Source: Sporocytophaga myxococcoides
GTDB taxonomy: Bacteria; Bacteroidota; Bacteroidia; Cytophagales; Cytophagaceae
Assembly: GCF_000775915.1 (NCBI RefSeq)
Contig: NZ_BBLT01000002.1
Span: forward strand, 716,384-780,383
DNA length: 64,000 bases
Direction of reading: 5' to 3'
The translations under genes and the position numbers were made by a program. A model generated the notes under the pieces. It saw nothing but the letters and a program-made list of their open reading frames with translations. It was not told the DNA's origin and searched no databases. Positions 8,184 through 39,817 of the stretch are shown piece after piece. Numbering within the stretch: the stretch's first letter is position 1; each line of letters starts with the position of its first letter.

Positions 8184-9203
8184 TCAGGCCCAGACTTTGG
8201 TTCCTTCTGTGCAGTTTTTGCACATTTCGATCTGACTTCTGCTTTTGAATAGCTGCTGTCTGAAGTTATTGTAACTTGTTCCAAACCATACTTCCTTAAA
8301 AGTATTTACCTGTAAGGCTCCGAGCTGATGCTGTGCGTCCTTATCGAAACAGCACGGAACTACTTTCCCATCCCAGGTGATTACGCAGGAATGCCACATT
8401 TTCCAGCATCCGTCATCGAGACTGTTTTTGATTTTATATTTTCCTGAAGCGTCTTTATAGTATCTGGAATATTTAACATTTTCAGGTATCAGGGTTGAGC
8501 CATCTTCATAGTCATAAATCTGAGCGGTCTTCAATCGAACTTCATCAACACCTAATTCCTTTGCTAGTTTTTGAACATCATCAATCTGATGTTCATTTGG
8601 TTTTACAACCAGAAATTGAAAAATGACATGTGGTGTCTGAGATTTAAGTTCTTTCTTCCACTTGATAATATTTCTGGTTCCCTCGATTACTTTATTCAGT
8701 TGGCCTCCTACGCGATAAGACTGGTAGGTCTCCTGAGTGGTACCATCTATAGAAATAATCAATCTGGATAATCCTGATTCCACTGTTTTTTTTGCGTTCT
8801 CTTCATTCAGATAATGCGCATTGGTGGAGGTTGCTGTATATATCTGATGGGATTTGGCAAACTTTACCATTGATAAAAATTCAGGATGCAGATAAGGTTC
8901 GCCCTGAAAATAAAAAGTAAGATAAGTCAGATGATCTTTCATCTGAATAATGACTTGTTCAAAAAGTCTGACTTCCAGCATTCCTGTAGGACGGGTAAAT
9001 GAACGCAGACCGCTGGGGCATTCCGGGCATCTTAAGTTACAGCTTGTAGTAGGTTCAAAGGAAATACTGACAGGTAAGCCAAGCGCATAGGGCTTTTTTA
9101 ACAGTCGGGAATAATAAAAGCTAAAAAGGACCAAAAATGCATTTTTGATCCTTTTTAGCTTGAACGAGGAAAGCAGATTCAGTGAATCATGAAATTTTCC
9201 CAT
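8184..9203 (-). CDS. radical SAM protein with C-terminal SPASM-like Cys cluster
   Basis: CNLRCPEC (Cx3Cx2C) near the N-terminus, and a C-terminal …CCFDKD…CKNCTEG cluster. Confidence 0.8.
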   Translation of the reverse strand: MGKFHDSLNLLSSFKLKRIKNAFLVLFSFYYSRLLKKPYALGLPVSISFEPTTSCNLRCPECPSGLRSFTRPTGMLEVRLFEQVIIQMKDHLTYLTFYFQGEPYLHPEFLSMVKFAKSHQIYTATSTNAHYLNEENAKKTVESGLSRLIISIDGTTQETYQSYRVGGQLNKVIEGTRNIIKWKKELKSQTPHVIFQFLVVKPNEHQIDDVQKLAKELGVDEVRLKTAQIYDYEDGSTLIPENVKYSRYYKDASGKYKIKNSLDDGCWKMWHSCVITWDGKVVPCCFDKDAQHQLGALQVNTFKEVWFGTSYNNFRQQLFKSRSQIEMCKNCTEGTKVWA

Positions 9204-19865: not shown

Positions 19866-21614
19866 TTAAACTTTAAACTTATTACTTACAACTTTCTCCC
19901 CCCATTCCATATCTCCCGGTAATTCTAAAGAATTAAACTCAAGATGAAGTACTCTCCGGTGTTTCTGATTTGTCACTTTCGAAGAAGCATGTAATAAAAG
20001 CGGTTTCATAAAATGTATTCCACCAGCTTTAACTTCGCAAGGTAGTGCCATACTGTTCTGAGTGATGGTTGCTATCTGATCATTATTGAGTTTCTTTTGA
20101 TGAGATCCAGGGATTATTTTTAATCCACCATTTCTTTCATCCGTGTCATCCAGATGGATTCTGATGGTCAGAGTGTTTTTGAGAATGTCTTCGGGTGGAC
20201 AAACGCTGATTACACTGCCTTTTTGAGTCCATCCTGTATAACCTACAGTTTCTGTTTTTTTATTGACATTAATCGTGATATCCTGATGCCAGGTAACATA
20301 CCAGTTGGATTCAGGAGGTTTATCAAAATAAATGGCTTTGGTTAAAAACAGATTGTCTCCTTTGCTGGCAAGTATTTTCTTTAAGTTTTTATTAAAGAGA
20401 AAAGATTTAAGCTCTGGAATTTCAATTAATAATTGTCTGATAGCATATACCTGTTTATCTCCTTTTGGAAGTGTTTTGTTAAAATACTCCTGAATAATAG
20501 TTTTAATTTTGTTGACTTCTTTTTTAGTATATACATTTTGCAAGATAGCGGAGCCTCTTCCTTCTGCTTTCTGCAAGGCCGTTTTTATGCCCGAGGAAGT
20601 AAGGTCCGCATCATACAAGTCCAACGCATGAGCCAGTCTTTCTCTGATTCTTCTTTTCAGAGTCTCAGGCTTGATCACTCTGACTGCATCTCCAAATCCA
20701 AGTATTTCTTTTTCCAGTTCGAAGTTAAGCTGGACTTTTAACGAGATTACTATACCATTGTCAGTGGTCTCAATGACTTGCTGTGAATGATGAAGGGGTT
20801 TGGTAATTACATAAGGAGCATTTGTCCGATCTACAAAAAGCATTACATTTTCGGGCTCACCATTAGGATTTACAGAAACACCGATTACGTCTTTGAAATA
20901 GTCCTTGATATCATCCTGTTTATATTTTATATAAGATACATTAGAAGGAGATAATCCTTCGATTCGGTCCAGAGCCAGATTTAACATAGGCTGTCCTCTT
21001 TTGGTGATGCCAAGTACAAACCATCTGTTACGGTATTCTTTTAATAAATAGGGATGAAAGGACAAGGTGTTTGCTGTTCTTGATTTGAAAGACTTGTATA
21101 CAATATTCAAAGGTGTTTCATTGATAATGGCCTGATACAAACTATCCAGATACTGAAGACCTTTGAGGTTTTCATTTTTTTCAAAATCAATGACTGAACT
21201 TTTATTGGTTTTGGAAGAATGTATTTTATCTTCCAGTCGCTGTACCATACCGCTCAGTTCCTGAAAATGACTAAAACCACTGAATTGCTTTAACAATTCT
21301 ACCACTTCAGTGAGCTTATTCAAATCCTGTCCGGTTAATGGGATATTGGTGATGGAATAATCTGGGTCTTCATAGGTATAATATTTTTTATCCAAAACGA
21401 TAATAGGAGCATTATAGCCCAGTTTATCGCTCCTCATCATCTGAATATCCATTTGGATGGACCTTTTGCTAATTCCCTTGTCAATTCCCTCGTATTCATA
21501 AAGTGCTTCAGAACAAGCTTCGATCAGGTCATCCAGTGTCCATTTTCTGTACCTATTCTGTAAGCAGTTGTCAATGGTCTTATAGCGTATCAGTGCGTTT
21601 CGGTTTACTGGCAT
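19866..21614 (-). CDS. WYL-domain transcriptional regulator fused to a phytanoyl-CoA dioxygenase (PhyH)-like Fe(II)/2OG oxygenase domain
   Basis: N-terminal MPVNRNALIRYKTIDNCL… is a wHTH typical of Bacteroidetes YafY/WYL regulators. The C-terminal ~250 aa carries …WHQD…HLDDTDERNGGLKIIPGSH…, a PhyH-like 2-His-1-carboxylate pattern. The start is taken at Met23; the ORF is open back to 21680. Confidence 0.6.
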   Translation of the reverse strand: MPVNRNALIRYKTIDNCLQNRYRKWTLDDLIEACSEALYEYEGIDKGISKRSIQMDIQMMRSDKLGYNAPIIVLDKKYYTYEDPDYSITNIPLTGQDLNKLTEVVELLKQFSGFSHFQELSGMVQRLEDKIHSSKTNKSSVIDFEKNENLKGLQYLDSLYQAIINETPLNIVYKSFKSRTANTLSFHPYLLKEYRNRWFVLGITKRGQPMLNLALDRIEGLSPSNVSYIKYKQDDIKDYFKDVIGVSVNPNGEPENVMLFVDRTNAPYVITKPLHHSQQVIETTDNGIVISLKVQLNFELEKEILGFGDAVRVIKPETLKRRIRERLAHALDLYDADLTSSGIKTALQKAEGRGSAILQNVYTKKEVNKIKTIIQEYFNKTLPKGDKQVYAIRQLLIEIPELKSFLFNKNLKKILASKGDNLFLTKAIYFDKPPESNWYVTWHQDITINVNKKTETVGYTGWTQKGSVISVCPPEDILKNTLTIRIHLDDTDERNGGLKIIPGSHQKKLNNDQIATITQNSMALPCEVKAGGIHFMKPLLLHASSKVTNQKHRRVLHLEFNSLELPGDMEWGEKVVSNKFKV

Positions 21615-21804
21615 TATATAAGTTGTAAGTAGTAAGTTATAAGTTTTAAGGAGATGTACTGTCTGTTCATAGTTTATCAACTCCTTCCAGCTCCCTCCTT
21701 ATGTTAAATTTAAAAAAAATATTTTACACCTGCGCAAAAATAATGCGTAGTGACTTTTCAATTTTGATTCAATAATTTAAATAACTGATATTTAAATCTT
21801 GAAA

Positions 21805-21830
21805 CCCTCTCCGCAAAATGGCGGAGGGGC
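21805..21830. promoter_or_regulatory. GC-rich hairpin in the AT-rich WYL/rtcB divergent intergenic region
   Basis: ccctctccgc-aaaatg-gcggaggggc, a 9-bp stem with one bulge. Confidence 0.3.
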
Positions 21831-21934
21831 TCTCGTAAGAGAAATTATACTAAAAGAATTTCTGTTTTAAATAATTGGTTATTAAATAGATGATCAGATT
21901 TTTTTAATAATTAAAGAGATGAGGGAATTTAATA

Positions 21935-23359
21935 ATGCAGAATAAAGGGAAAATAAACGGAAATCAGTTAATTGAAATTGGATATCCGGAAGGTAAGGTA
22001 ATTGGTATAGCTCTGGAGGTTATTCAAAAAGAGTACTCCTTAATGGAGCCGGACGAAGTGCTTGACATAATGAAAAATGTTTTGGCTTCTCCATCAGATT
22101 TTCTTAATGATTTAAAAACGTCTTTTATTGCTGAAGAATTGCTGAAACCGAATAAAAAGGATGAGATAATCGAACTTTTACCTTCTCCTCGTTTATATAA
22201 AATCTATGGAAAAGAAGGAATTGAAGCGGGAGCTATCAAACAGATGGACACAGCCATGAGACTTCCTGTTTCCATTGCAGGTGCTTTAATGCCTGATGCA
22301 CATCAGGGGTATGGACTACCAATAGGTGGAGTCCTTGCTACAAGAAATACAGTAATACCTTATGGTGTAGGTGTGGATATCGGATGTCGTATGTGTATGT
22401 CCATTTTTGATATACCCGCAGGTTATGTAGAAACAGGAAAAGGAGATCTGATGAAGATGCTTGTTAATAATACTATGTTCGGCAGAGCTACTTTTAAGAA
22501 GCCCAAAGATCATGAAATTATTTCAAATCCCCTTTTCTCTGAAATTGAAATTCTGAGAGGTCTCAAAGAAAGGGCATATGCTCAACTTGGATCATCAGGT
22601 GGTGGAAACCACTTTGTGGAATTTGGTATAGTTGAGGTGGTAGATTCTAATAATGAATGGAATATCGCTCCTGGAAAGTATTTATCACTCTTGTCGCACT
22701 CAGGCTCAAGAGGAATGGGAGCAACGATTGCAAATTATTATACAAAACTGGCAATGGAAACTTGCAAGTTGCCTCAGGAAGCTAAACACCTTGCCTGGCT
22801 TGATCTTGATACTGAAGCAGGGCAAGAGTACTGGCTTGCCATGAATCTTGCAGGAGATTATGCATCAGCCTGTCATCATCAGATCCATGAAAGAATGGCT
22901 ATTGGCTTAAGAACCAATCCTGTTGCTATGATTGAGAACCATCATAATTTTGCATGGAAAGAAAAGGATGAGAAAGGCAATGATGTAATCGTTCATAGAA
23001 AGGGAGCAACCCCTGCTGGCAAAGGTGTATTGGGTATTATTCCAGGTTCTATGACTGCTCCGGGTTATGTGGTAAGAGGTAAAGGTGATGAAGCATCTGT
23101 TAACTCTGCTTCCCATGGTGCGGGACGTGCAATGTCCAGAACGCAGGCTAAGAATACTCTTAAGCCGGAGACGGTAAAGCAGCAATTACAAAAGGCAGGC
23201 GTTGAATTGATTGGCTCTGGGTTGGACGAAGCACCGATGGCTTATAAAGACATCAGGACTGTTATGGAAGCTCAGAAAGATCTTGTTGAAGTTGTAGGAG
23301 TGTTCTTACCGAAAATCGTTAGAATGTGTGGAGATGAGAAGTTTCAGGAGGTTGATTAA
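21935..23359 (+). CDS. rtcB: RNA-splicing ligase RtcB
   Basis: 474 aa. GGGNHF, metal-binding His cluster and catalytic-His context (…HRKGATPA…) are present. Confidence 0.9.
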   Translation: MQNKGKINGNQLIEIGYPEGKVIGIALEVIQKEYSLMEPDEVLDIMKNVLASPSDFLNDLKTSFIAEELLKPNKKDEIIELLPSPRLYKIYGKEGIEAGAIKQMDTAMRLPVSIAGALMPDAHQGYGLPIGGVLATRNTVIPYGVGVDIGCRMCMSIFDIPAGYVETGKGDLMKMLVNNTMFGRATFKKPKDHEIISNPLFSEIEILRGLKERAYAQLGSSGGGNHFVEFGIVEVVDSNNEWNIAPGKYLSLLSHSGSRGMGATIANYYTKLAMETCKLPQEAKHLAWLDLDTEAGQEYWLAMNLAGDYASACHHQIHERMAIGLRTNPVAMIENHHNFAWKEKDEKGNDVIVHRKGATPAGKGVLGIIPGSMTAPGYVVRGKGDEASVNSASHGAGRAMSRTQAKNTLKPETVKQQLQKAGVELIGSGLDEAPMAYKDIRTVMEAQKDLVEVVGVFLPKIVRMCGDEKFQEVD

Positions 23360-23389
23360 AAAGATTTTGTTGGTCAAGGACTCCTATTA

Positions 23390-23428
23390 GAAAAAAAAGG
23401 ATCATGATAGTAATGATCCTTTTTTTAT
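23390..23428. terminator. bidirectional terminator between rtcB and the RT gene
   Basis: A8 run, then aggatcat-gatagta-atgatcct hairpin, then T7. Confidence 0.65.
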
Positions 23429-23446
23429 GTCTACATGACTTCAAGA

Positions 23447-24958
23447 TTACCAGAATTTCCACCAGGGTTTCTTCTTTATTGCTTCCGGATTGATTTTGCT
23501 ATCAGGAGCTTCCGGGACCTTTGGTTTATGTTTTATTACATGTTTGTAACGATGCGTTTCAAGTATTTTTTTTACCCTTTCTTCCAATGGTTTTCCTTTC
23601 TCCGGATTAACCATCTTTACAAAGTTGGCATATCCTTTTATTGAAGCAAGAAGGTTGGTGCTGTTGTTCCAGTGTTTTCCTTTTATTGTTCCTTCTTTTT
23701 CTATTTGATGCAACAGGGCTCTGAATTTATCCAATTCCTTTCTGCATAAACTTGGTTTATCATTTACTATAATTCCTGTTACTTCCTTTCTCGCTCCTTT
23801 CCGCAGCACACGAAGCTTATCAGGATTAATATAAAGCTTTTCATCTTTGATTATTTTTTTAACAAAACCTAAAAGAGTTGAAGTATTAGATGTTGCTATT
23901 CCTGAAGCAGAGAAAGTAAGATCGTCTGCATATCTTGTGTAATTGAAATGAAGTTTATAAGCAATACCTTTTAATCTCTTATCAAGTTTACGACAAATAA
24001 GATTAGTGATCGCAGGGCTTGTTGGAGCGCCTTGCGGGAGGAATCTTTCACTTCCTGCGGCATAGTATGTTTCTCCGTCCAGTTCCACCTGATCACAATC
24101 GGGTTCAGTACAGATCAATGCAAATATTGTTGAAATCTGTTCTGAATAACCCAATGCAATAAACAAACCTTTTACCCTTCGATAGTTGATAGAAGGGAAG
24201 AAATCTTTAAGATCTATATTCACAACTACCTCTGCTTTTACATGTGGTAAAGCATTGCTGACGATAGATCTTTTCTTTATAAAACCATGTGCAGATTCTG
24301 TTGCATCTATTTTATTAAGTATGTTTTCAAGTATCCAGTGCTGAGCTTTTTTAAGCCTTGGCATAGGAGTGGAGATAAGACGTTTGCCTCCTGTTTTTTT
24401 AGGTATGTAAAACCTTCTGTAATGATTGATTTTACTGATTGTTCTATTATAAGAAAGAAACTTTAGTTCACCGATCGTTATCTTCATGGCAGCGGATAAC
24501 TCTTCTGCTGTTTGAAATACAGGCAACTGGTATTTTAAAAGCTTGTTGCTATCGCTTACTTGATTATTCAGACCTTTAGAAACTTTCTCTCCAAGATAAA
24601 TGATATTTTTATCTTTAAGTTCTTTCCATCGTGCAGCTTTGGCTTCCCTTTTTTGCTTTCTGAGAATTTTGTTTTCTTCTCTTTTTTTTCTGGATTGCTC
24701 AAGCCTCGCTTTCCTTACCTGTTTAAGCGCTTCTTCTCTGTTTTGATAAATCCGCTGCTGCTGAAGTAATTTATTCAGTTCTTTGATAAGGTCAGCCTCT
24801 TTGTGGATCAGCATTTCCGGAATTTCCGAAACTCCTTCATCACTTTTCCAGAAGCCCAGACGCTTCATCTCTTCAAGTATGACAGCATTTCTGCCGCTTG
24901 CTTTGATGCGCTCGTACAACTGCTGTCTGGTTGGCTGAGAGTTTTCTGTGTTGACCAT
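23447..24958 (-). CDS. retron-type reverse transcriptase with ~150-aa Lys/Arg-rich coiled-coil N-terminal extension and ~90-aa C-terminal extension
   Basis: KRSIVSNALPH contains the retron NAxxH motif and DLKDFFPSI follows it. LPQGAPTSPAITNLI, YTRYADD (YADD catalytic motif) and RKEVTGIIV (retron VTG motif) are present. The start is taken at the Met at 24958, just downstream of the a2 repeat; the ORF is open back to 25021. Confidence 0.8.
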   Translation of the reverse strand: MVNTENSQPTRQQLYERIKASGRNAVILEEMKRLGFWKSDEGVSEIPEMLIHKEADLIKELNKLLQQQRIYQNREEALKQVRKARLEQSRKKREENKILRKQKREAKAARWKELKDKNIIYLGEKVSKGLNNQVSDSNKLLKYQLPVFQTAEELSAAMKITIGELKFLSYNRTISKINHYRRFYIPKKTGGKRLISTPMPRLKKAQHWILENILNKIDATESAHGFIKKRSIVSNALPHVKAEVVVNIDLKDFFPSINYRRVKGLFIALGYSEQISTIFALICTEPDCDQVELDGETYYAAGSERFLPQGAPTSPAITNLICRKLDKRLKGIAYKLHFNYTRYADDLTFSASGIATSNTSTLLGFVKKIIKDEKLYINPDKLRVLRKGARKEVTGIIVNDKPSLCRKELDKFRALLHQIEKEGTIKGKHWNNSTNLLASIKGYANFVKMVNPEKGKPLEERVKKILETHRYKHVIKHKPKVPEAPDSKINPEAIKKKPWWKFW

Positions 24959-24970
24959 AGAAGTATAAAA

Positions 24971-25197
24971 AATGGTAGTGTACAGGACATTCTTCGTCAT
25001 TCTGAGGACCGGATTGGTCAACTCCAGCGAGACGTCACTATATGCTTATTTCAATTCCTGGAATTCTTACCGGAAATGAGCATATAGTGGCAGGATCGCA
25101 CAGTTAAGAACGAGCCGGTGGCGCGTTAGTAAGCTGTGTACAAGGACTGTGATACACAGCCCGGGTTGCAAGATTTTAATACCCTGCCACTACCATT
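24971..25197 (-). ncRNA. putative retron msr/msd non-coding RNA
   Basis: 10-bp perfect inverted repeats aatggtagtg (24971-24980) and cactaccatt (25188-25197) bound the region in an a1/a2-like arrangement. Inside are a 17-bp bulged stem (25035-25051 / 25072-25089) and a 7-bp hairpin (25134-25159). It lies immediately 5' of the RT ATG on the same strand. Confidence 0.5.
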
Positions 25198-25198
25198 A

Positions 25199-25230
25199 CA
25201 AAGCTAAATTTTAAATTTATCTGTTACAAA
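25199..25230 (-). promoter_or_regulatory. Bacteroidetes sigma-A-type promoter for the msr/msd-RT transcript
   Basis: On the minus strand, TTTG at 25230-25227 is followed by a 20-nt spacer and TAGCTTTG at 25206-25199. This predicts a start about 7 nt downstream, at the a1 repeat. Confidence 0.45.
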
Positions 25231-25232
25231 CT

Positions 25233-26876
25233 TTAATACAAATTTTGTTTCTTTCTGAATGCAATTCTCAATGCAAGCATATGCTCACATGGTCCCTGCA
25301 TCAACTTATTTTGATGAAAGAAATTACAACTACACTTCCCGCTTACAATTCTTTCATCACTATCAATCACAAGTTCTGGGTTATACGTTTTGTTATCCTC
25401 TTTAACGGTTCCTGTCAACTTTTGCTTTCCTTCGGATACATCTGCTTTGAATTGGATGCTCCGGTTGTCAAAGAACCTATTGGCTTTTTCTTCTCTTGCA
25501 TTAGAAAATCTTAATGCTTCAAGGGGTAATGTTTCTCTTGAAATCTCTCTTATCCGATAACAATTATTGTTGAGATCATAAATAGCCTTTCCCTGTTGGG
25601 TAAACGCGGACAAAGCTCCAAGGACAAGCGATTTGTCCAGTTGTAGTCTTGAAGCCAGTACTTCCGGCTTTTCAACCCACTTTTCTTTTAGTCCGATAAA
25701 AACCTTTTGCATGGTCATGGCATCAGCTTCTGCTCTCGGAGCAAGAAGATCAAAGTTGCCCATGCGTGACCAGTCATTGGCAGTCCAGCCGGACAAGCCA
25801 AGTGTGAAATTCATTTCACCTAAATCTGCTATGTAAAAGGAGGGAAGCCCTGAACCTAAAAGAACTACTTTAATAGAATTTGTTACAGGTATTAATCTTT
25901 CTAAGAGTAATAATCTTCTTCTTCCCCATACTTTTATTTCTTTGGGTTCATTACCAGTGTAAATAGATCTGAGGCATTTGATCTCGTAGTTCCAGGGTTC
26001 AAAAATCATTCTTACAGGTTCCCCAGGCTTCAGAATATATCGGATGTATCTTGGTCCTTCTTTTTCTTTATGTCTTTTGAGTATAAAGCAGATGTTGTAA
26101 ACATCCATTGGATGCAATTCGAAAGATGTTGCCGGAATAGACATTGCAGAGCTCACCTGAAGAAATCCTCTTACCCAGCTTGCCGGTACATCAATCTTCA
26201 CTTCTTTATAGCTTTCTTCTGCAGTAGTCTGAACTTCAAATCCGGAAGGATCTATGTTGAAATGTGTATCTTTATATTCTCTTATCTTCTGAAATTCATT
26301 ATACAGACTGGAAGAATAATCAATATTGGTTGTACCGCACTTAAACTCACTTAAATTTTTAAATACATTGTAGTTACATCCAAGCTTGCCGTAAGAAGAT
26401 TCGTCCTGACTGAAACATTCAAAAAATAATTCATCAGGATGAACTGTTATGACGGGATCATAAACCCTCATCAATTCCGGGCTGGTCCGGTAGAGGTACT
26501 GGAAATATTTGTTTTGAGCTTTGTAGAAGGGCTCCATTACATTGTATTTTTCCCTTCTTACTTTTTCTAGCTCTACCCTTATGCCTTTAAGTTTTTGCTC
26601 TACGTCTTCTGCTCCTCCTAAATATTGTGCAAGCCAGATATCTTCCTGCTCTTTTGCCCATGTCTTATAGTCTGTTTTATCTTTAGGTTTAAAACGGAAA
26701 TCAGAAACTACTATGTCATGAAGTGCAGATATGGCTTCTCTGAACGGAATATGTTTGTTAAGATACCCGGAGAAGTAGGTTGGTTCTCGGTATATATCAG
26801 GTGCGAAATTCATGCTTGTAGAGCCTGATGTATTTTTAACCGTGGTATCTCCTTTAAATTTATAATTGAATTCCAT
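25233..26876 (-). CDS. SWIM zinc-finger domain protein
   Basis: C-terminal …CSCNFFHQNKLMQGPCEHMLAL is a CxC…CxH SWIM finger. 547 aa. Its start lies 3 nt from the stop of the WGR gene. Confidence 0.65.
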   Translation of the reverse strand: MEFNYKFKGDTTVKNTSGSTSMNFAPDIYREPTYFSGYLNKHIPFREAISALHDIVVSDFRFKPKDKTDYKTWAKEQEDIWLAQYLGGAEDVEQKLKGIRVELEKVRREKYNVMEPFYKAQNKYFQYLYRTSPELMRVYDPVITVHPDELFFECFSQDESSYGKLGCNYNVFKNLSEFKCGTTNIDYSSSLYNEFQKIREYKDTHFNIDPSGFEVQTTAEESYKEVKIDVPASWVRGFLQVSSAMSIPATSFELHPMDVYNICFILKRHKEKEGPRYIRYILKPGEPVRMIFEPWNYEIKCLRSIYTGNEPKEIKVWGRRRLLLLERLIPVTNSIKVVLLGSGLPSFYIADLGEMNFTLGLSGWTANDWSRMGNFDLLAPRAEADAMTMQKVFIGLKEKWVEKPEVLASRLQLDKSLVLGALSAFTQQGKAIYDLNNNCYRIREISRETLPLEALRFSNAREEKANRFFDNRSIQFKADVSEGKQKLTGTVKEDNKTYNPELVIDSDERIVSGKCSCNFFHQNKLMQGPCEHMLALRIAFRKKQNLY

Positions 26877-26879
26877 CCC

Positions 26880-29800
26880 TTATTTCTTTACATATTCAGA
26901 ATAATCAACTACTTTAACAAAGTTATGCAATGAAGGATATTTTTTCCGGATATCTCTGAGTATGTCAATACATCCGGCTTTTTCTGAAATAGCCATAGAC
27001 CCTGAAGCTCTATTCAGAATTTCTGATGCAGTTTGTGCAACGGTTTCATTTTTCATAGCTTCTTTTTTCAGAAAATCCAGTGCGCGCAATTTTGCTACTT
27101 TCCCTTTATTTACCTGAGAAAGTAAGGTGACAAAATATAGCTTCAGTTTTTCAATTACATCTGGTTTGTCTCCGGCGTATGTTTCAAGATATGATGAAGT
27201 AAATAGCTGCAATCTTGTATCCGGGTGCTGACTTAATTTTAATAAATATTCTTCTCCGTCTTCGATCTTAAAGGATTTGGTAATCATTTCCTTTCCAAAG
27301 TTTTGAACAGTTTCTCTTGTGCTGTCGCAAAGAGCAATAAGGTTTTCAGCAGACCAGTCTTCTTGTTTGAATGTATTTCTGAAATAATCAAAAGCAAAGT
27401 TTCTTGTGTCTTCCCAGTCAGAATCTACAATCCTTAATGCTTCTTCTTTATTTTCCTTTATCCTGAGATGGTTGTTATTGTAGTAGTTCCACGCATACTT
27501 TCTTATCTCTTCATTTGGATTACCCGAAATCTTCACAATTTCAGAGATTGATAATTCCTCTTCTCTGATTGTCATTTTTAGTAAAGCAGCACCAAGTAAC
27601 TGTGCAGATTTAAATTTTGAATGAAGGAGTAAAAGTCCCTGATTTTTATTGATGTATGACAAGCTGCCAGAAAGCTCCGTTATTAAGAGGTTAAGTAAAT
27701 CATGATGTACCCCTTCATAAGTTTCCTTCATCAGAAATGCGGGAACAAACAAGTCGATAAGCTCATTCCCGAATGCAGGGTATGCCTTCGTGAGATTTGC
27801 AATGATTGGTTTTACTGCATTTCGTACATCCGGAAGTGGTGATAAACAAAAGCTGATAAGGAGTTCTTTTTTTTCTATCAGAGAAGTTTCAGGAAATCTT
27901 CCTAACAGCTCGATACCTGCAGTTCTCGCTTTTTCATTTTCTGATTTTAAAAGAGCTTGAAGGAGTTCACTAGGAATAAGTTCAGGATTTAGTTTTTTGT
28001 GTACCAGTATAGAACCTGCAATGGCATGTACTTCCGGTGAAAAATGTTGAAGCAGATCTTTGATGATATCTGTTCCTATAAAATCAAGCTGGTTTCCGAA
28101 TATATCCAGCATTGTTTGACCTGTATGTGAAATAAAGAGCTTATCTTCTTCCGATCGAACTTCAGTCTGGATAATGGTAGCAAGTATTTTCCCAATGACT
28201 ATTTCAGCTTGTTGATCAGGAATGTTTGCTGAGATTAGTAGTGACCTTACTTTGGTTTGTATGAAAGAATTCCTAAGGAAAATCAATTCAGTAACGAATT
28301 CTGAATTACTTATGAATACTTGTTTCTGCTCTTCAATCCATTGCAAAGCCTGAATGCTGGCTTCTTCAAGAGGACTTTGAAGCATCCCGATTAGAAGTTG
28401 TGTGTCAGGATTAGCGGAATTATAAGCTTTCATAGCTTCTTCCAATCCAACCTTTCTTGTTATCTCAAAAGCAGCATTCAGAATATCTACAATATTTTCT
28501 GTTGTAAGCTGATTAGCGAATTCGGGGTTTGCTTTAAATACCTTTAATGCAAACTCATGTACCTGTAAAGATCTTGAGCACGATAAGAGCTTTATAACTT
28601 CATTTGCCGCGGTGTCCCAGAGTTCGGGAAAGGCCTCTTCTCTTTGTAATGGCGCTTCATTACCTGGAATATAAGGCTCTATACATTGCCATCCGCTTGG
28701 GCCCAAAGAGTATCTTGGACTGTTTTGAAAGAGTATGAAATTATATGCTTTGTATATAGCATTAGCTTCGAAATATGTTTTTGTCTCAATTACATCGTGC
28801 CTTTTGGTTTGCTTGTTATATACATAAGTATAGGTGGAGCGATGATAGGAAGGTTTGCTGTCTTTGCTATCATCAAAAGCCAATAATACTCCACAAGCCA
28901 TTTCCTTATACGATGAAGATTTAACTTCACCAAGCCTCTTAAGTGATCTGACTACTCTTGCAGAAAGATACCTTTTGGTTTTACTGCTAAAAGCTCCTTT
29001 ATCACTGTATGGACCTGGAGAATGTTTATCAATATTTTTTGTTATGATCCCAAAAGTTTCATAATCTTCCCACATCTCAGCCATTTTAAAGATATGTCTG
29101 ATATGTTTGAAATAATTGTAGGTAAGAGGAACATTATTGATTATACGTGATAATATTCTCTTTAATTCTCTATTATCATGAGATAAACGATAAAGGGAAG
29201 ACAGATACTCGTTGGATGTTGATTGGGTTTTAAAGAGTAATTCCTTTAATTGAATATGAAGCCCTGAATAATTTCCTACCAGCAATAATTTCTTTATATG
29301 TTCTGGAAGTGTTGCAAGAAGATACTCTCCGGCTGTTTTTCTCTCTGCAGGATCTGATATCCTGAATAAAGCTTCTGATATGATATCATTTACATGTTGA
29401 GGATAGTCATGATTCTGTTGCAATGACTTAAGAAAAGAGGCTGAGTTTGAATTACCGCATTTTCCGATTGTCCATATTGCAGAATAAACGGAAATGTTGT
29501 CAGAAAGGTCTGTCAATTTTTGAATTAAGGGAATTGCTTCATGTATATTGAGTTCGCCTGCTCTCCAGAATACTCTTGACAAAGGCCAGTTTTCGGGTTG
29601 ATCACCATCTACTGCATTCTTTAAAATTTTAAGAATGGCTTTCTTTCTGCGGTCATTGTCTTTTGCGCCTTGAACAGGCTTACTGACAATCCCCATTGGC
29701 TCACCTTCTGTGGAATATCCCTTGCTTCTTTTTTCCTTTTCCAGCGCATCAAAAACTTTATTTGCTTCCTGCAGGTCAACAGGAAAAATAGTTTTGGTAC

Positions 29801-29939
29801 CTTCTTTCAGGGTTGCGCCTCTTCTTCCATATCTGAAATTAACCAGAAATCCTCCTCCGGATTCGCAAAGGTCAATTTCATATACTTTGTCCGAGGTTCC
29901 TTCCTGAAAGTATAATTTTATTTGCTTTATCAGTTTCAA
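26880..29939 (-). CDS. WGR-domain protein with long HEAT/ARM-like helical repeat region (MolR/YehI-like)
   Basis: N-terminal …TSDKVYEIDLCESGGGFLVNFRYGRRGATLKEGTKT…KGY is a WGR domain. An ~850-aa helical region follows. Confidence 0.7.
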   Translation of the reverse strand: MKLIKQIKLYFQEGTSDKVYEIDLCESGGGFLVNFRYGRRGATLKEGTKTIFPVDLQEANKVFDALEKEKRSKGYSTEGEPMGIVSKPVQGAKDNDRRKKAILKILKNAVDGDQPENWPLSRVFWRAGELNIHEAIPLIQKLTDLSDNISVYSAIWTIGKCGNSNSASFLKSLQQNHDYPQHVNDIISEALFRISDPAERKTAGEYLLATLPEHIKKLLLVGNYSGLHIQLKELLFKTQSTSNEYLSSLYRLSHDNRELKRILSRIINNVPLTYNYFKHIRHIFKMAEMWEDYETFGIITKNIDKHSPGPYSDKGAFSSKTKRYLSARVVRSLKRLGEVKSSSYKEMACGVLLAFDDSKDSKPSYHRSTYTYVYNKQTKRHDVIETKTYFEANAIYKAYNFILFQNSPRYSLGPSGWQCIEPYIPGNEAPLQREEAFPELWDTAANEVIKLLSCSRSLQVHEFALKVFKANPEFANQLTTENIVDILNAAFEITRKVGLEEAMKAYNSANPDTQLLIGMLQSPLEEASIQALQWIEEQKQVFISNSEFVTELIFLRNSFIQTKVRSLLISANIPDQQAEIVIGKILATIIQTEVRSEEDKLFISHTGQTMLDIFGNQLDFIGTDIIKDLLQHFSPEVHAIAGSILVHKKLNPELIPSELLQALLKSENEKARTAGIELLGRFPETSLIEKKELLISFCLSPLPDVRNAVKPIIANLTKAYPAFGNELIDLFVPAFLMKETYEGVHHDLLNLLITELSGSLSYINKNQGLLLLHSKFKSAQLLGAALLKMTIREEELSISEIVKISGNPNEEIRKYAWNYYNNNHLRIKENKEEALRIVDSDWEDTRNFAFDYFRNTFKQEDWSAENLIALCDSTRETVQNFGKEMITKSFKIEDGEEYLLKLSQHPDTRLQLFTSSYLETYAGDKPDVIEKLKLYFVTLLSQVNKGKVAKLRALDFLKKEAMKNETVAQTASEILNRASGSMAISEKAGCIDILRDIRKKYPSLHNFVKVVDYSEYVKK

Positions 29940-30261
29940 ACAAATTAGAATTAAAAGTTTTCTGATTAAAAATCAATATCATTCAAAATATGAAGTGACA
30001 AAGTAGTTAATATGTATAGCAATTTCCAATAAATAGCAATTTTTTCGTTTGGAAGTAAGTTATAAAGTTGGAATCGACGTTGTTAAAGAAGTTTAAGTTA
30101 GGAAAAATGAACCGTTTATTTTTTCTTGAAAAAATTTAAATTTTATAGTTCTTTTTGTATATATTTGATTATCATTTTTAGTTGAGGTAAGAATAACTTT
30201 TAACCATTTATATATTAACCTTTTTGTCATATAATCGTAATCAAAATACAATTCTGAATCA

Positions 30262-30897
30262 ATGAATGAGTTATTAACTGAATCTTTTAAAAATTCAAAT
30301 TTACCAGTTACAATTTTACTTCTTCTGGTATTGTTTTACTGGGTTATAAACCTGATTGGGATATTTGATCTGGAAATGTTGAGTGGGGATGCAGAACTGG
30401 ATAAGGGACATGTTGAAGTTGAAACTGATTCTGATTCAATATTAGGAAAAACCTTTGATTTCGGAGATCTTCCAATTGCCATTGTGATCAGTTTTTTTGT
30501 ACTCTTTTTCTGGATGATTACAATATTGACAAATTATTATCTGGGAAATTCTTCCTTATTTTTTGCCTTGATTATATATCTTCCTGCAATCATCGGGTCT
30601 TTTATTGTAACGCGCATCATCTCGATTCCGCTCGCGAAAATATATAGTTTGCTGAAGTTAAATACAGAAGAGGCAGAAACCGTTAGTGATTATACCGGTG
30701 CTATCTGTATGGTTTTTGTGGAAGCTACTTCGGAAAGAAATGGTCAGGGTGAGATCAATAGAAATGGAGATCCTATCAGGGTTAATATCAGGACCTATCC
30801 TGGTAAACAGATGTTAAAGGGGAGCTCAGCACTTTTAATTGAATATATCAAAGGTGGTGATTACTATATCGCTGAGCCATACGATTCCGAAAGATAA
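30262..30897 (+). CDS. NfeD-like membrane protein (short NfeD/YuaF type) preceding flotillin
   Basis: 2-3 N-terminal TM helices and a C-terminal beta-rich soluble domain (…GAICMVFVEATSERNGQGEIN…IRVNIRTYPGKQ…) consistent with an NfeD OB-fold. It sits 46 bp upstream of a flotillin gene. Confidence 0.5.
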   Translation: MNELLTESFKNSNLPVTILLLLVLFYWVINLIGIFDLEMLSGDAELDKGHVEVETDSDSILGKTFDFGDLPIAIVISFFVLFFWMITILTNYYLGNSSLFFALIIYLPAIIGSFIVTRIISIPLAKIYSLLKLNTEEAETVSDYTGAICMVFVEATSERNGQGEINRNGDPIRVNIRTYPGKQMLKGSSALLIEYIKGGDYYIAEPYDSER

Positions 30898-30943
30898 ACT
30901 AATACTAAACACATATTAACAACTCTTATAAATCTTAAATCCA

Positions 30944-33058
30944 ATGTTAGAGAATGTATTAATGACGACAATTCTGATAGGAATTTTTTTCGTCGTGATG
31001 ATCCTTGTTCTGTTAGTAAAATGGTATAAGAAAGTACCGCAAGGAAAGGCCATAGTACGAACAGGCGCAGGAGGAACAAAGGTTACATTTACCGCTATGT
31101 TCGTGATTCCGGTTCTTCATAAAATGGAGATTATGGATATTTCTTTGAAAACGCTTCATATTAAAAGAATTGGAAAAGACGGACTTATTTGTCAGGATAA
31201 CATTCGTGCAGACATAGAAGTGGCTTTTTTTGTAAGAGTTAATAAAGGTGTAGAAGATGTTGTAAAGGTTGCTCAGACAATTGGTTGCGAGCGTGCTTCC
31301 CACAAGGAAACCCTTGTTTCTATTTTTGATTCAAAATTTTCAGAGGCACTAAAAACAGTAGGCAGAAGATTTGATTTTGTTTCGCTTTATTCCGATAGAG
31401 ATAAATTCAAAAAAGAAATACTAGATATCATCGGAACTGATCTTAACGGTTATCATCTTGATGATTGTGCAATAGATTATCTTGAGCAGACACCGCTTGA
31501 GTTTATGAAGACCGATAATATCCTTGACTCACAAGGTATCAAGAAAATTACCGAGATCACTGCTCAGCAAAAAATTCTTGCAAATGAAATCAAAAGAAAT
31601 GAAGAGAAGGTACTTCGTAAGCAGGATGTAGAAGCCAAGGAAGCTATTTTAGAGCTTAACCGTCAGCTTGCTGAAACAGAAGAAAGGCAGCAAAGAGAAA
31701 TTGCTATCATTCGTGCAAGAGAAAAAGCTGAAGCTGAAAAGGTAATGTCAGAAGAGAAACTAAAATCTGAACTGGCAAGAATAAAATCAGAAGAAGGTAT
31801 TCAGGTTGCAGAGGAAAATAAACAGAGGCAAATTATTGTGGCTTCTAAGAGCAAAGAGAGAACCGATGCAGTGGAAACACAACGTGTGGAGAAAGATAAA
31901 TTACTTGAAGCAAACGAAAAAGAAAGAGTTGTTGCTCTGGCAATAATCGAAAAGGATAAAGCTCTTGAGGAAGAAAAGAAAAACATTCAGGATGTGATCA
32001 GAGAGCGCGTAATGGTTGAAAAAACGGTTGTTACTGAAGAGGAAAAGATAAAGGATGCAAAAGCATTTGCTGAAGCAAACAGAAATAAGGAAGTAGCAAT
32101 TACGAATGCGACAACTCAAGCGGAAGAGTTGAAGGTGAAAGAAATTAAAATGGCAGAAGCAATGAAAGCAGCTGCTGAGATCAAAGCATTGCAGTTAATG
32201 TTGGAAGCAGAAGCTGCACAAAAAGCATCTGCAAGTCAGGCAGACGCCAGAAGAACAATTGCAGAGGTAACAATACTTGAGGAATCAACGAAAGGGTTGG
32301 CTGAAGCTCAGGTGATCGAAGCTAAAGCGAAAGCCCAGGAAAAACAAGGGACTACAGAGGCCCTGGTTTTTGAGAAAAAATCTGTTGCAGAAGCGAAAGG
32401 CATAGAAGCGAAAGCAACCGCAGAGGCAAAAGGTATTGAAGCCAAAGCTGCTGCTGATGAGAAAAAGGGTACAATGGAAGCTACAGTTTTACACAAGAAG
32501 ATGGAAGCAGAAGCTCAGGGTATCACTCAGAAAGCCGATGCTATGAAGAAACTGGATGGGGTTGGTAAAGATCACGAAGAATTTAAACTTAAACTGGATA
32601 AAGAGAAATCTATCGAGCTTGCTGAAATCAACATTCAAAAAGATATTGCCGAAGCCCAGGCTAAAGTTATCTCTGAAGCATTGAAGGCTTCTAAGATAGA
32701 GATTGTTGGTGGCGAAACAATGTTCTTTGATAAAATCGTTGGTTCAATCACAAAAGGAAAGTCACTTGATAAGATGGTGGACAATAGTAAGCTTCTTACG
32801 GATATCAAAGGATCCTTTTTAGGTGATGGAAATGAAAACTTACTTGAAAGAATACAGGATCTGTTAGGTAAGCATAAGCTTTCTACCGAAGATATCAAGA
32901 ACCTGTCTATATCTGCTCTGATATTAAAATTAAGTTCAGGAACTGTTGATAATGCCCTTAAAAATACACTTGCTTCTGTATTGAATGAGGCAAGGGATCT
33001 GGGAATTGCAAACCAGACGCTTGAGAACCTTGGAATAAAGATTAAAACAAAAGAATAA
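30944..33058 (+). CDS. flotillin-family SPFH/band-7 protein with long Glu/Ala/Lys-rich coiled-coil region
   Basis: N-terminal TM, then …VRTGAGGTKVTF…IPVLHKMEIMDISLKTLHI… (SPFH), then a ~400-aa EA-repeat region including AKGIEAKATAEAKGIEAKAAADEKKG repeats. Confidence 0.85.
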   Translation: MLENVLMTTILIGIFFVVMILVLLVKWYKKVPQGKAIVRTGAGGTKVTFTAMFVIPVLHKMEIMDISLKTLHIKRIGKDGLICQDNIRADIEVAFFVRVNKGVEDVVKVAQTIGCERASHKETLVSIFDSKFSEALKTVGRRFDFVSLYSDRDKFKKEILDIIGTDLNGYHLDDCAIDYLEQTPLEFMKTDNILDSQGIKKITEITAQQKILANEIKRNEEKVLRKQDVEAKEAILELNRQLAETEERQQREIAIIRAREKAEAEKVMSEEKLKSELARIKSEEGIQVAEENKQRQIIVASKSKERTDAVETQRVEKDKLLEANEKERVVALAIIEKDKALEEEKKNIQDVIRERVMVEKTVVTEEEKIKDAKAFAEANRNKEVAITNATTQAEELKVKEIKMAEAMKAAAEIKALQLMLEAEAAQKASASQADARRTIAEVTILEESTKGLAEAQVIEAKAKAQEKQGTTEALVFEKKSVAEAKGIEAKATAEAKGIEAKAAADEKKGTMEATVLHKKMEAEAQGITQKADAMKKLDGVGKDHEEFKLKLDKEKSIELAEINIQKDIAEAQAKVISEALKASKIEIVGGETMFFDKIVGSITKGKSLDKMVDNSKLLTDIKGSFLGDGNENLLERIQDLLGKHKLSTEDIKNLSISALILKLSSGTVDNALKNTLASVLNEARDLGIANQTLENLGIKIKTKE

Positions 33059-33082
33059 CACGTCAAGATTTATTAAGTAATC

Positions 33083-36000
33083 ATGGCAGAAGTTAAACCT
33101 GAGAATACTTCAGATTCTAAAGCAGTGCAACTTGATTCCGGTACTTATGAAGTTTTGCGAAGCAGACTTGATAAGTCAGGCAAGGACCTAAGGGAAAGAC
33201 TGGGGAAACTTAACGAAGACAGAAAGAATGTATTCGGCGCTATAGAGCAAAAGCTCGTAGCAACAGCAAGGATTACCACGGAAAATAATTGTGTACCCAG
33301 AGATATGGTTTCTCTGGGTACTTATCTTTTATTCGGATACAACGTCCATATTGGATTAAGATCAGAAACCGTTCTAACGGATGTATTCAGCATCTATCAG
33401 TATAAAGACCATTCATTTGTTCATGCTGGGCTTAATAAAATCCAGACTGAACTTTTTGAATCGGATTTTAAAGAACTTTATAAGTATTACAAAAGTACTT
33501 CCTTTGAAAAGTTTGCAATTATTGGTCCTTATATGTACATGATCTTCCGCGTCGGAAAAGGCGCGAAGGACATTAAGACATTTAAATGGCTCATAAGTGG
33601 CGAGGAGTTGAAATATGAAGGAAACAGAAGCGAACATGAATATAAGTTTCCTCCTCAATATGGATTCGAATGGGAGCGCACATCAAGGGATTATCACAGA
33701 AAGGGTAAGCACCCTCATGTATCCGTACTTGACAAAGTCTTCATAGAAACGATAGGGGGGGATTTAACAGTTAAGATTGAAGACAATACTGAAGACGGGG
33801 AAGGTATCTACTCCGAACCTGTTGAAGATAAAGATCAGAGACTGGATGATGCAGAGATGTATTATGCAGATCTGGGAAATATCATTCTGCTGAAGATAAA
33901 ACCTTTTAAAGAGGACCAATTCAGATATATAGTCTATAACGATAAAATTAAGAAGGCACAGAGGATTGACGCAATAAAGGATTCCTGTGTTTTGCTTCCT
34001 GAAAGCCACGGAATTATTTTTTCGAAGGGATATTATCTCCAGACTGGAGAGTTTAAACTTTTTGATAACGACCTTCAGGGACTTAGGTTTGAAAAGAGAA
34101 TTCAGTCTCCTAATGGGGAAGATTATTTATATGTGTTTTATAATGACGAGCATGGTGCATATATTCTGCTTCCATATAATCTTATAGAACAAAAGGTTGA
34201 CAACCTTATTCTTTGTCATGGTTACTCTATATTTGACAATGGAGAGCTGATCTATTTTAACGATCAGAATGAACCTTCAAAACATCATACCATTCAGATA
34301 TGGAGTTCTGCTTATTTCAGCAGTACCTATATTCCTCCGATAGTTCCAGATTCTTATTTGTATAAAATCGGAAACAAGGACATCGTCCGTTGTATGGCCG
34401 AATGTTCGGAAGTGCTCGGCCTCCTTTCCAAAAACGACGAAGCTTATTCAAATTTATATCTAGATATTGTCAAGATCAGCACGGACCTGCTTGATTCTTA
34501 TTATTGGATCAGGGAAGAGGCTACATTCAACCTGGCTCAGCCTGTTGCAGAAATTAAATCAACAGCTGCTGCTACCATTGAGGAATTTGAAAAGGTAGTC
34601 AGGATAAAAAGGAATACATTAGATCAGGTTAAAAAACAATCAGACCGGGCAAAAGCTATTCTTGATCAGATAAAGCGCGACAGGTTTGAAGACATCAATA
34701 CTTTTGTAAATATTCTTTCTGAGTTAAGGTCATTGAGAGGGGATATTATTTCTCTGAAAGAACTCAGGTATGTCGATCTTATTGCTGTCAGCGATCTTGA
34801 AATGAACATATCGGATGAAACGGAAAAGCTTTCGGCAAAGTGCGTTGAGTTCCTCTTGCAGGAAAAGGCTTTGCTTCCTTACCATGAAAGGGTAACTTTT
34901 TTAAATGCTGCTGCCGAAAAGGTAACGAAGGTTACCGAAGCGAATAAGACTGAAGAGGAGATCGCTCAGGTCAGTAATGAGCTTGAAATGCTGATTCAGA
35001 TTGTCAGCAACCTGAAGATTGAAGATGCAACTCAGACGACCAAAATCATAGATACGATTTCTCTCATTTTTTCTGAGATCAATAAATTAAAGGCTTCTCT
35101 TAAAAACAGAAAACTGGAGTTAAGGAGATCTGAAAGTGAAGCGGAATTTAATTCTCAGATAAAACTATTGGATCAGTCCATAGTAAACTATCTGGATTTA
35201 AGTTCTACGCCTGAGAAATGTGAAGAGTTTCTTTCTAAGCTTATGATACAGCTGGAAGAACTGGAAGCTAAATTTCCCGACTTCGATGGTTTTATCAAAA
35301 TAGTTTCTGAAAAAAGAGAAGAGCTTTACGGAGCCTTTGAAAACCGTAAGCTGTCTTTAATAGAAGCTCGTAACAACAGGGCCAACGCCCTCATGAGCGC
35401 TGCGGAGCGTATCTTGTCCGGAGCAAAAAACAGAGTGGCTACTTTCGATACAGCTGCTGAGATCAATGGCTATTTTGCCTCTGATTTGATGATGGACAAA
35501 CTCAGGGATATTGTAAAGCAGTTAAATGATCTAAGTGATACTATAAAGGCGGATGACATTCAGGGCCGTATGAAAAACCTCCGTGAAACAACACTGAGAC
35601 AATTGAAGGATAAGAAAGAGTTGTTTGTCGGAGGTGCTAATGTTGTAAAATTCGGAAATTATAATTTTTCTGTAAACACACAGGCTCTAGAGCTTGCAAT
35701 GGTGAACAGGCACGAAGAAATGTTTTTTCATATCACCGGCACAAGCTTCTTTGAAAAAGTAACAGATCCTGAATTCCTCAATACCAAGTCTTTCTGGAAT
35801 CAACACCTGATATCTGAAAACGACTATGTTTACAGAGGAGAATACCTGGCTTGGCTTCTTTTTAATGAAGGTCAGGTAAACTCTAAATATGATAAAGAAA
35901 ATTTAGTTAAGCTGGACGAGCCTTCTCTTACTGTCGTAGTTCAGGAATTCATATCCAACAGATATTCCGAAGGGTATGTCAAAGGAGTGAATGACAGGGA

Positions 36001-39085: not shown

Positions 39086-39817
39086 TTAATTTTCTAATTT
39101 TTTGGTAGAGTCAATTGCAATTTTTGCTTTCAGGTGTGCAAGAGAATCGGCAATTAATGGATGTGTAAGACTGCCTTCCAGCGCCTTATTGATTTGATCA
39201 TCCACAGATTTATTATTATCTGCTATTTCTCCATAAGACTGTGCCAGCGCCTCTTCCTGATTTATTTTATCTTTCATTTTCTCCAGCATTCTTAGAGTAT
39301 TATTGGCATCAAGTCCTGCAAGTTTCTGGTTAAAATCTTTAGTACTCTTTGCAACTTTTACACGGGCTTTCAGAGTGTCAAGTTCACCTTCCCAACCATC
39401 TATTTTACTTTTTAGCAGTTTATTGTTGCTCTCAATTTTTGAGGCCATATCGTTGTATTGCTTTACAGTATTGCTTAATGTCTCTATCTGAGAAAGAGCG
39501 GAATGTCTTTTCATTAAAGCTTCACTTGCAAGTCTGTCCCCTTCAACAGGATCAAGACCGCCTGATTGAGCTTTCTGTAAGAGCAGCATTGCTTTATGCT
39601 CATATTCCAATGCTACTTTATTTTTTTCTTTCTGGTCGTTTTCCGCTTTTATGGCAAGGGCTTTAACCTCAGCAAGGCTTTTCAGTCCTTTGTTCAGATC
39701 TTCACGAAGATCCCGTAATCCCTGCTCAATCATATTAATAGGATTTTCAAGTTTATCAAGAGCAGCGTGTGCTTCAGCTTCACCAATTTTAAAAAGACGT
39801 TTGAACCAGTTTAACAT
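39086..39817 (-). CDS. pspA: PspA/IM30 family protein
   Basis: 243 aa all-helical. N-terminal MLNWFKRLFKIGEAEAHAALDKLENPINMIEQGLRDL is typical of PspA/Vipp1. Confidence 0.85.
   Translation of the reverse strand: MLNWFKRLFKIGEAEAHAALDKLENPINMIEQGLRDLREDLNKGLKSLAEVKALAIKAENDQKEKNKVALEYEHKAMLLLQKAQSGGLDPVEGDRLASEALMKRHSALSQIETLSNTVKQYNDMASKIESNNKLLKSKIDGWEGELDTLKARVKVAKSTKDFNQKLAGLDANNTLRMLEKMKDKINQEEALAQSYGEIADNNKSVDDQINKALEGSLTHPLIADSLAHLKAKIAIDSTKKLEN

Follow-up and report, generated by a model that had tools for sequence, protein, structure and literature searches.

The locus considered here lies in a 64,000-nucleotide (nt) stretch of Sporocytophaga myxococcoides DNA (GCF_000775915.1, NZ_BBLT01000002.1, positions 716,384–780,383), which we call the window and whose positions serve as coordinates throughout. 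The question it raises is whether a reverse transcriptase (RT) gene and the structured spacer in front of it belong together as a retron, as a preliminary description of the sequence had proposed, and if so, what kind of retron this is. We find that the spacer is a genuine msr–msd RNA gene of an already classified kind of retron, type XIII (the Mx162 family), and we consider it very likely that the locus as a whole is a complete type XIII retron, in which a WGR/HEAT gene, a SWIM gene, the msr–msd non-coding RNA (ncRNA) gene and the RT gene follow one another on the minus strand. The identity of these four parts, the conserved RNA structure with its covariation and the conserved contexts of two G residues are established here. 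All the features that define a retron or type XIII and lend themselves to testing were found, save that the agreement with the published type XIII RNA model is indirect. For the S. myxococcoides genome, the ncRNA gene and its coordinates are new; the retron type itself was already known.

The reverse transcriptase and its two partner genes

Few retron types are as widespread as type XIII, which counts among its members Mx162, the first retron ever found, whose multicopy single-stranded DNA (msDNA) is 162 nt long. The published definition of type XIII combines an RT of clade 10 with a SWIM/DEDE protein and a preceding WGR/HEAT-ARM protein, the SWIM/DEDE partner being marked by a DEDE motif together with a winged helix and, at its C-terminus, a SWIM finger (CxCx12CxH); the type has its own ncRNA family, and its vertical inheritance has been noted (Mestre et al. 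2020). Members known from experiment are Retron-Mxa1 (Mx162), Mxa2 (Mx65), Sau1 (Sa163) and Nex2 (Ne144). The view that retrons are poorly documented in Bacteroidota, voiced in the preliminary description, does not hold, as a 2026 survey counts 306 candidates in that phylum, and 13 of its 143 type XIII retrons are found there.

Three closely spaced minus-strand genes make up the coding part of the locus (Table 1). Their products are identical to GAL84345.1 (the RT), MYP_1574 and MYP_1575 of Sporocytophaga myxococcoides, which were deposited as "RNA-directed DNA polymerase" in the case of the RT and as hypothetical proteins in the other two; RefSeq names the two partners SWIM zinc finger family protein and WGR domain-containing protein. 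Only 3 nt lie between the stop codon of the WGR gene and the start codon of the SWIM gene, and a spacer of 274 nt (24959–25232, minus strand) separates the SWIM gene from the RT gene.

The RT carries the motifs expected of a retron enzyme, NAxxH (within SNALPH; NALPH at 24256–24242, minus strand), YADD (23932–23921) and VTG (23782–23774), as had been described, and the residues concerned (N235, A236, H239, Y343–D346 and V393–G395) do not vary across 32 aligned homologues with 53–91% identity. Its best PADLOC profile is RT_XIII (E = 1e-188, 626 bits, residues 3–484), the runner-up reaching 310 bits, and this match would place it in retron RT clade 10, that is, in type XIII. The nearest solved structures in the PDB are the RTs of the retrons Ec86, Ec67, Kva2 and Ec78 (E = 2e-45 to 5e-20). 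An RT of another class, be it that of a group II intron, of a diversity-generating retroelement (DGR) or of the abortive infection (Abi), unknown group (UG) and defence-associated RT (DRT) families, shares with retron RTs the Pfam domain RVT_1, which is the only Pfam match of our protein (residues 185–387). Such a class is nonetheless a negligible prospect. First of all, among the PADLOC matches listed, 25 of 25 are retron RT profiles. Second, a group II intron RT (5e-6) and Drt2 (1e-4) score 40 orders of magnitude worse than the retron RTs in the PDB. Third, the window holds no intron RNA or other Rfam family, and there is no direct repeat of at least 30 nt in 21000–31000, hence no pair of template and variable repeats; the group II intron and DGR readings are thus removed.

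At its ends, the RT bears an N-terminal extension of about 140 residues and a C-terminal tail, KKPWWKFW (23447–23470, minus strand). Within the tail, K497, P498, W499, W500, K501 and W503 are nearly invariant among the 32 homologues, which come from several phyla; it may serve to dock a partner protein. We take ATG 24958 as the start codon, since M1 is nearly invariant in the homologue alignment. The RefSeq protein WP_197060033.1 (517 residues) is 14 codons longer than the 503-residue protein and starts at ATG 25000, a position within the ncRNA, inside its conserved ACGAAG motif and a2, and the longest open reading frame begins further upstream still, at TTG 25021.

The preliminary description had not recognized the two upstream genes as type XIII partners. 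The 1019-residue protein matches the PADLOC profile WGR_XIII over its full length (E = 0, 1135 bits), with the Pfam domains WGR (residues 13–78) and HEAT_2, and the 547-residue protein matches SWIM_XIII (E = 7e-236). The latter has a SWIM finger, CSCx12CEH, and an acidic pattern, Dx7Dx4Ex32Dx38E, whose five acidic residues (D140, D148, E153, D186 and E225) are invariant in 37 homologues; between phyla, its identity amounts to 60–76%. Since both genes match the partners of type XIII, the element belongs to the described class, with which it shares an RT with an N-terminal extension that matches RT_XIII along its length, and the SWIM/DEDE and WGR-HEAT partners in their usual order upstream of the RT.

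The arrangement recurs widely. We collected 80 genomic loci with relatives of the RT, from Bacteroidota, Myxococcota, Cyanobacteria, Acidobacteriota, Verrucomicrobiota, Planctomycetota, Pseudomonadota and Bacillota. A tblastn search places a SWIM homologue next to the RT in 67 of these and a WGR homologue next to it in 55; the remainder are for the most part truncated contigs. The order WGR, SWIM, spacer, RT is common to most of the 80 loci and to Ohtaekwangia koreensis (locus L081); in three Bacteroidota loci, the SWIM/WGR pair stands downstream of the RT instead.

The RNA gene between the SWIM and RT genes

The spacer folds far better than chance, with −89.4 kcal/mol for the whole against −62.5 ± 4.7 for shuffled sequences (z = −5.67), none of 200 shuffles doing as well. 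The perfect 10-bp inverted repeat first seen at 24971–24980 and 25188–25197 is borne out and forms the outer half of a longer a1/a2 stem, in which a1 (25197–25178) pairs with a2 (24991–24971) over 20 bp with one bulge (−24.7 kcal/mol). When the region is shuffled with its dinucleotides kept, 3.3% of the shuffles contain a perfect inverted repeat of at least 10 nt; the region itself has three. Inside, the bulged 17-bp stem (25036–25052 with 25073–25089) is likewise found as described and is 94% complementary, while the short hairpin, given earlier as 7 bp, takes the form of an 8-bp stem (25162–25155 with 25151–25144) in the version that homologues back. An overlapping 8-bp hairpin (I9, 25160–25153 with 25140–25133) was set aside, as it is not kept in locus L002.

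The spacers of related loci have a common series of blocks. From the 5′ side, these are CTTGCA, a short hairpin and GC.TCACTGG..C.CTCTT.ACTGTGCG, followed by a variable long hairpin, CGCT.GAGTTGA...CCAGTCC and ACGAAG. An nhmmer profile of this RNA core finds the ncRNA in 54 of the 80 loci, always on the RT strand and nearly always upstream of the RT, and also in L081; in the window, it has a single match, 25176–24990. Related RTs are thus accompanied by a conserved structured region, and the RNA family so built spans Myxococcota and at least eight other phyla, always beside RT_XIII-like RTs. Because the initial selection of ncRNAs used a regular expression, TTGC...CGAAG, the invariance of those motifs is circular, and they were rechecked in profile hits selected otherwise, where CTTGCAA is present in 13 of 14 and CGAAG in 17 of 18.

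Structure is conserved beyond sequence. RNAalifold was run on 37 ncRNA copies, and the pairs of the consensus were counted on the alignment. The 47 consensus pairs are formed in 89.2% of cells, compared with 71.4% in column shuffles and 35–49% when partners are slid by one to three columns. Compensatory changes, on both sides of the pair, occur in 35 of the 47 pairs and in 346 cells against 113 in shuffles. The UCUU/AAGA pairs that close the structure next to the two G residues (columns 54–57 with 249–252) are formed in 97% of cells, the msr hairpin in 99.7%, with both-sided changes in five of its eight pairs, and the long-range helix (helices 3 and 4) in 92–98%, with both-sided changes in seven pairs. 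The msd hairpin (helices 5–7) is hypervariable in sequence between loci, yet shows compensatory changes in all 21 of its pairs. As for the a1/a2 repeats, they are kept as pairings and not as sequence: the arms of the 36 other copies differ, each retaining its own partner, and a1 forms a duplex of −42.5 kcal/mol on average with its own a2 as opposed to −18.1 with that of another locus. For 30 of the 37 copies, no foreign a2 pairs as well, and the exceptions are mostly close relatives.

These data also bear on whether the spacer could be a cis-regulatory leader or attenuator of the RT gene, or a terminator of the SWIM gene, and no template of msDNA at all. Such a role would suit its position between two genes, as well as the T-run (CACTACCATTTTTTAT) that follows a2 in the window, 11 nt before the RT start codon. 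The T-run is not general, however, being present in 2 of 37 copies, for which reason the a1/a2 stem with the T-run was also rejected as a terminator between ncRNA and RT. Moreover, the covarying terminal repeats with a conserved G flanking the stem end on either side are the architecture of an msr–msd, as is a short 5′ hairpin followed by a long one that is hypervariable yet always paired, and the two to three tandem copies with different hairpins found in seven loci make no sense for a leader. We thus regard a purely regulatory spacer as very improbable, and retain the msr–msd gene.

The tandem copies are an observation in their own right. In 7 of the 54 ncRNA-bearing loci, two or three complete copies lie upstream of a single RT (L003 2950–3399; L007 2261–3057; L010 1032–1520; L011 5272–5949; L016 5381–5889; L023 5350–5887; L029 5081–5539); the window has one copy. 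Between tandem copies, the msr core is 76–100% identical and the msd hairpin 39–79%, and a1 and a2 also differ. Where this was checked (L003, L007, L010, L023 and L029), each a1 pairs with its own a2. In the searchable literature, we came across no account of such natural arrays of retron ncRNAs.

Ahead of the ncRNA, a Bacteroidota-type promoter-like motif, TTTG-N20-TAGCTTTG, ends one base before a1. Among 16 Bacteroidota loci, six have an exact TAnnTTTG immediately before a1, compared with none of the 39 loci from other phyla. The same placement is seen in L001, L057, L007, L013 and L043, and most other Bacteroidota loci have near matches to the −7 element, such as TAGCTTTA in L002 and GATCTTTG in Chitinophaga. 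This recurring placement supports a dedicated ncRNA promoter, a function predicted from position and similarity, and base composition may contribute to the contrast between phyla. A scan of 23200–30400 for σ70 promoters and intrinsic terminators gave counts equal to those of shuffles.

Table 1. Features of the retron locus, in window coordinates
Feature	Start	End	Strand	Basis or remark
WGR + HEAT/ARM-repeat protein, 1019 residues, first gene of the operon	26880	29939	−	PADLOC WGR_XIII, Pfam WGR and HEAT_2
SWIM zinc-finger protein, 547 residues, primary partner and putative effector	25233	26876	−	PADLOC SWIM_XIII
Bacteroidota-type promoter-like motif: −33 TTTG (25230–25227), 20-nt spacer, −7 TAGCTTTG (25206–25199)	25199	25230	−	Exact match
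a1, 5′ arm of terminal stem	25178	25197	−	Pairs with 24991–24971
UCUU closing pairs (25173–25170), then predicted branching G (25169), in CTTGCA	25169	25173	−	Consensus columns 54–57 with 249–252
msr hairpin, 8 bp (25162–25155 with 25151–25144), 3-nt loop	25144	25162	−	Consensus helix 2
Long-range helix, 5′ strand (3′ part of msr to 3′ flank of msd)	25102	25119	−	Pairs with 25023–25008, helices 3 and 4
msd long stem-loop, predicted template of msDNA hairpin, contains the 17-bp stem	25029	25097	−	Consensus helices 5–7
Long-range helix, 3′ strand, GGAGTTGA...CCGGT	25008	25023	−	GAGTTGA nearly invariant
Predicted opposing G (24995) in ACGAAG, closing pairs AAGA (24994–24991), a2 (24991–24971)	24971	24995	−	Pairing and conservation
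Retron reverse transcriptase, 503 residues	23447	24958	−	PADLOC RT_XIII, Pfam RVT_1

Proposed working and role of the retron

From this anatomy, a sequence of events can be proposed. Transcription would start a few bases into a1 from the Bacteroidota-type promoter, possibly with read-through from the two upstream genes as well, and the RNA would fold with a1 on a2, bringing G25169 opposite G24995; their conserved contexts predict these to be the branching and the opposing G, respectively. The RT, translated from ATG 24958, would bind the msr part, the 2′-OH of G25169 would prime DNA synthesis, and the template would be copied starting next to 24995. The enzyme would then copy through the msd hairpin and stop near the msr/msd junction, at about 25100–25125, the reverse transcript probably ending near the 25102–25119 strand of the long-range helix. 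Removal of the copied template by RNase H would leave a branched msDNA, mostly a long DNA hairpin, for which the distance of 174 nt from G to G predicts a length of about 105–130 nt. Finally, the RT–msDNA complex would act with the SWIM and WGR/HEAT proteins, most likely in phage-sensing abortive infection. The priming by G25169, the length of the msDNA and the role in defence are proposed by analogy with established retron biology (Mx162, Ec86).

How far the analogy reaches can be seen from the systems themselves. In common with other type XIII members, the locus places its ncRNA between the SWIM and RT genes, and this RNA combines a1/a2 with a single hairpin in msr and a long one in msd. It differs from the experimentally known members in its host, one of the Cytophagales (Bacteroidota), and in the Bacteroidota-type −33/−7 motif before the ncRNA; the predicted msDNA would also be shorter than that of Mx162 (162 nt). 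Ec86/Eco1 (type II-A) is the best-understood retron and has the closest solved RT, with a homologous core (E = 2e-45, residues 139–472) and the same ncRNA logic of a1/a2, branching G and msd hairpin. Its RNA family is, on the other hand, unrelated in sequence to that of the window, and its RT lacks both the N-terminal extension of about 140 residues and the C-terminal KKPWWKFW tail. Its effector also differs, being an N-glycosidase/nucleoside deoxyribosyltransferase-like protein that forms filaments with RT–msDNA, in place of the SWIM and WGR/HEAT proteins.

Several points weigh against reading the locus as a working defence retron of this design. First of all, a1 can pair with the 5′ base of the msd hairpin at −23.3 kcal/mol, little short of the −24.7 of its pairing with a2; the alternative includes a perfect 10 bp (25183–25192 with 25085–25094, minus strand), and the fold adopted in the cell may, in this lineage, differ from the a1/a2 model. 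Second, no Rfam family reaches the gathering threshold anywhere in the window, nor E ≤ 10 around the spacer and the RT start, beyond chance-level snoRNA and miRNA matches, and no retron msr family gave a match; the link to the published type XIII ncRNA model is therefore indirect, and is drawn because the window ncRNA can be aligned in one RNA family with loci of myxobacteria (Archangium, Hyalangium, Myxococcaceae). Third, the promoter given in the preliminary description stands as to motif and recurring placement, but the pattern itself is not rare for so AT-rich a window, with 2 found against 2.7 expected by chance. Fourth, the msDNA of S. myxococcoides is a prediction from genes and RNA structure, and we found no defence phenotype or mechanism of any type XIII retron in the searchable literature. 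Finally, the vertical inheritance of type XIII fits housekeeping as well as defence.

With regard to the first of these points, the sequence at the 5′ base of the msd stem is similar to a2 (CCTGCCACTA versus CCTGTACACTA). In L001 and L002, and by eye in L081, a1 has a similar alternative pairing at the same position, which more distant loci lack. Either an alternative fold or the remnant of a duplication could account for it.

The last point leads to the question of whether a true retron might serve a cellular and not an antiviral role here, as a vertically inherited, domesticated module in, for example, the DNA metabolism or the development of a gliding, microcyst-forming bacterium. To our knowledge, every retron type whose function has been tested acts in phage defence, which counts against such a role. 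Type XIII also has a patchy distribution, over eight or more phyla among the 80 loci, and gene neighbourhoods differ even between related genera, which suggests mobility. In its favour, the SWIM partner is unusually conserved between phyla, the neighbouring genes in the window include no recognized defence genes, and the model of the SWIM protein resembles DNA sliding clamps and not a known toxin; furthermore, the correlation of type XIII with host 16S is moderate (0.78), and domestication has been suggested (Mestre et al. 2020). We consider a cellular role unlikely, though it deserves to be kept in mind, and prefer a retron of defence.

What the partners do must be approached through models. 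Neither the SWIM nor the WGR/HEAT protein has a relative in the PDB, and we found no experimental paper on, and no structure of, a type XIII effector in the searchable literature. An AlphaFold2 model of the SWIM protein built with 37 homologues has a mean pLDDT (predicted confidence) of 64, with residues 240–440 and 460–547 good, and 1–67 and 134–231 poor; the invariant acidic residues fall in the poorly modelled region. In this medium-confidence model, residues 250–361 have the strand–helix order of one clamp domain, and the fold appears to resemble that of DNA sliding clamps (PCNA, DnaN, 9-1-1 and herpesvirus UL44), a lead rather than a result. The likeness is at the level of fold only, with 6–15% identity, a TM-score (a measure of structural similarity) below 0.5 and an aligned region that is partly of low confidence. 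Sliding clamps, moreover, lack the winged helix and SWIM zinc finger of the SWIM protein. A clamp-like SWIM partner is, as far as the searchable literature goes, undescribed.

It is tempting to combine this lead with the tandem ncRNAs, and to propose that the SWIM partner is a clamp-fold protein gripping the msDNA hairpin and that the tandem ncRNAs are natural "retron arrays". This joint reading is speculative and, in our judgement, probably wrong as a whole. If it were true, the partner would be a clamp-like module joined to a winged helix and a SWIM finger and not a transposase-like nuclease, the retron would act by msDNA-scaffolded assembly rather than as a simple toxin, and one RT would make several msDNA species, for example for sensing different triggers.

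Neighbouring genes and significance

Next to the RT and convergent with it lies a gene for an RtcB RNA ligase (21935–23359, plus strand), divergent from a WYL-WCX-PhyH fusion gene (19866–21680, minus strand); the two look like a pair of regulator and target. RtcB was considered as a functional partner of the retron and rejected, since it stands beside the retron only in the window, L001 and L070, and is absent in Ohtaekwangia koreensis, so that the association is probably incidental.

On the other side, upstream of the operon and on the opposite strand, are three genes (30262–37990, plus strand) that encode, in order, a small protein of membrane-associated look and a 704-residue coiled-coil, flotillin-like protein (both judged by eye and both with no Pfam match), and a 1635-residue DUF3686/DUF7902/AAA ATPase. 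A PspA/IM30 gene comes next (39086–39817, minus strand). None of these four genes matches a PADLOC defence profile, and a defence island around the retron was rejected, as the neighbours give no PADLOC match apart from a weak viperin-like one 14 kb away. The protein in question is a radical SAM/SPASM protein (8184–9203, minus strand) with a weak match to prokaryotic viperin profiles (E = 2e-13), which is probably generic radical-SAM similarity.

For S. myxococcoides, the analysis turns three vaguely named genes into one defined system and adds an unannotated ncRNA gene to the genome, in a locus that would be flagged by standard defence-annotation profiles. The alignment of 37 RNA sequences gives exact coordinates for the predicted branching G and the template, which can be used for work on msDNA or for engineering in Bacteroidota. 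More broadly, and for the family rather than for the window, leads on the mechanism of type XIII retrons come from the arrays of tandem ncRNAs and from the likeness of the SWIM model to a clamp.

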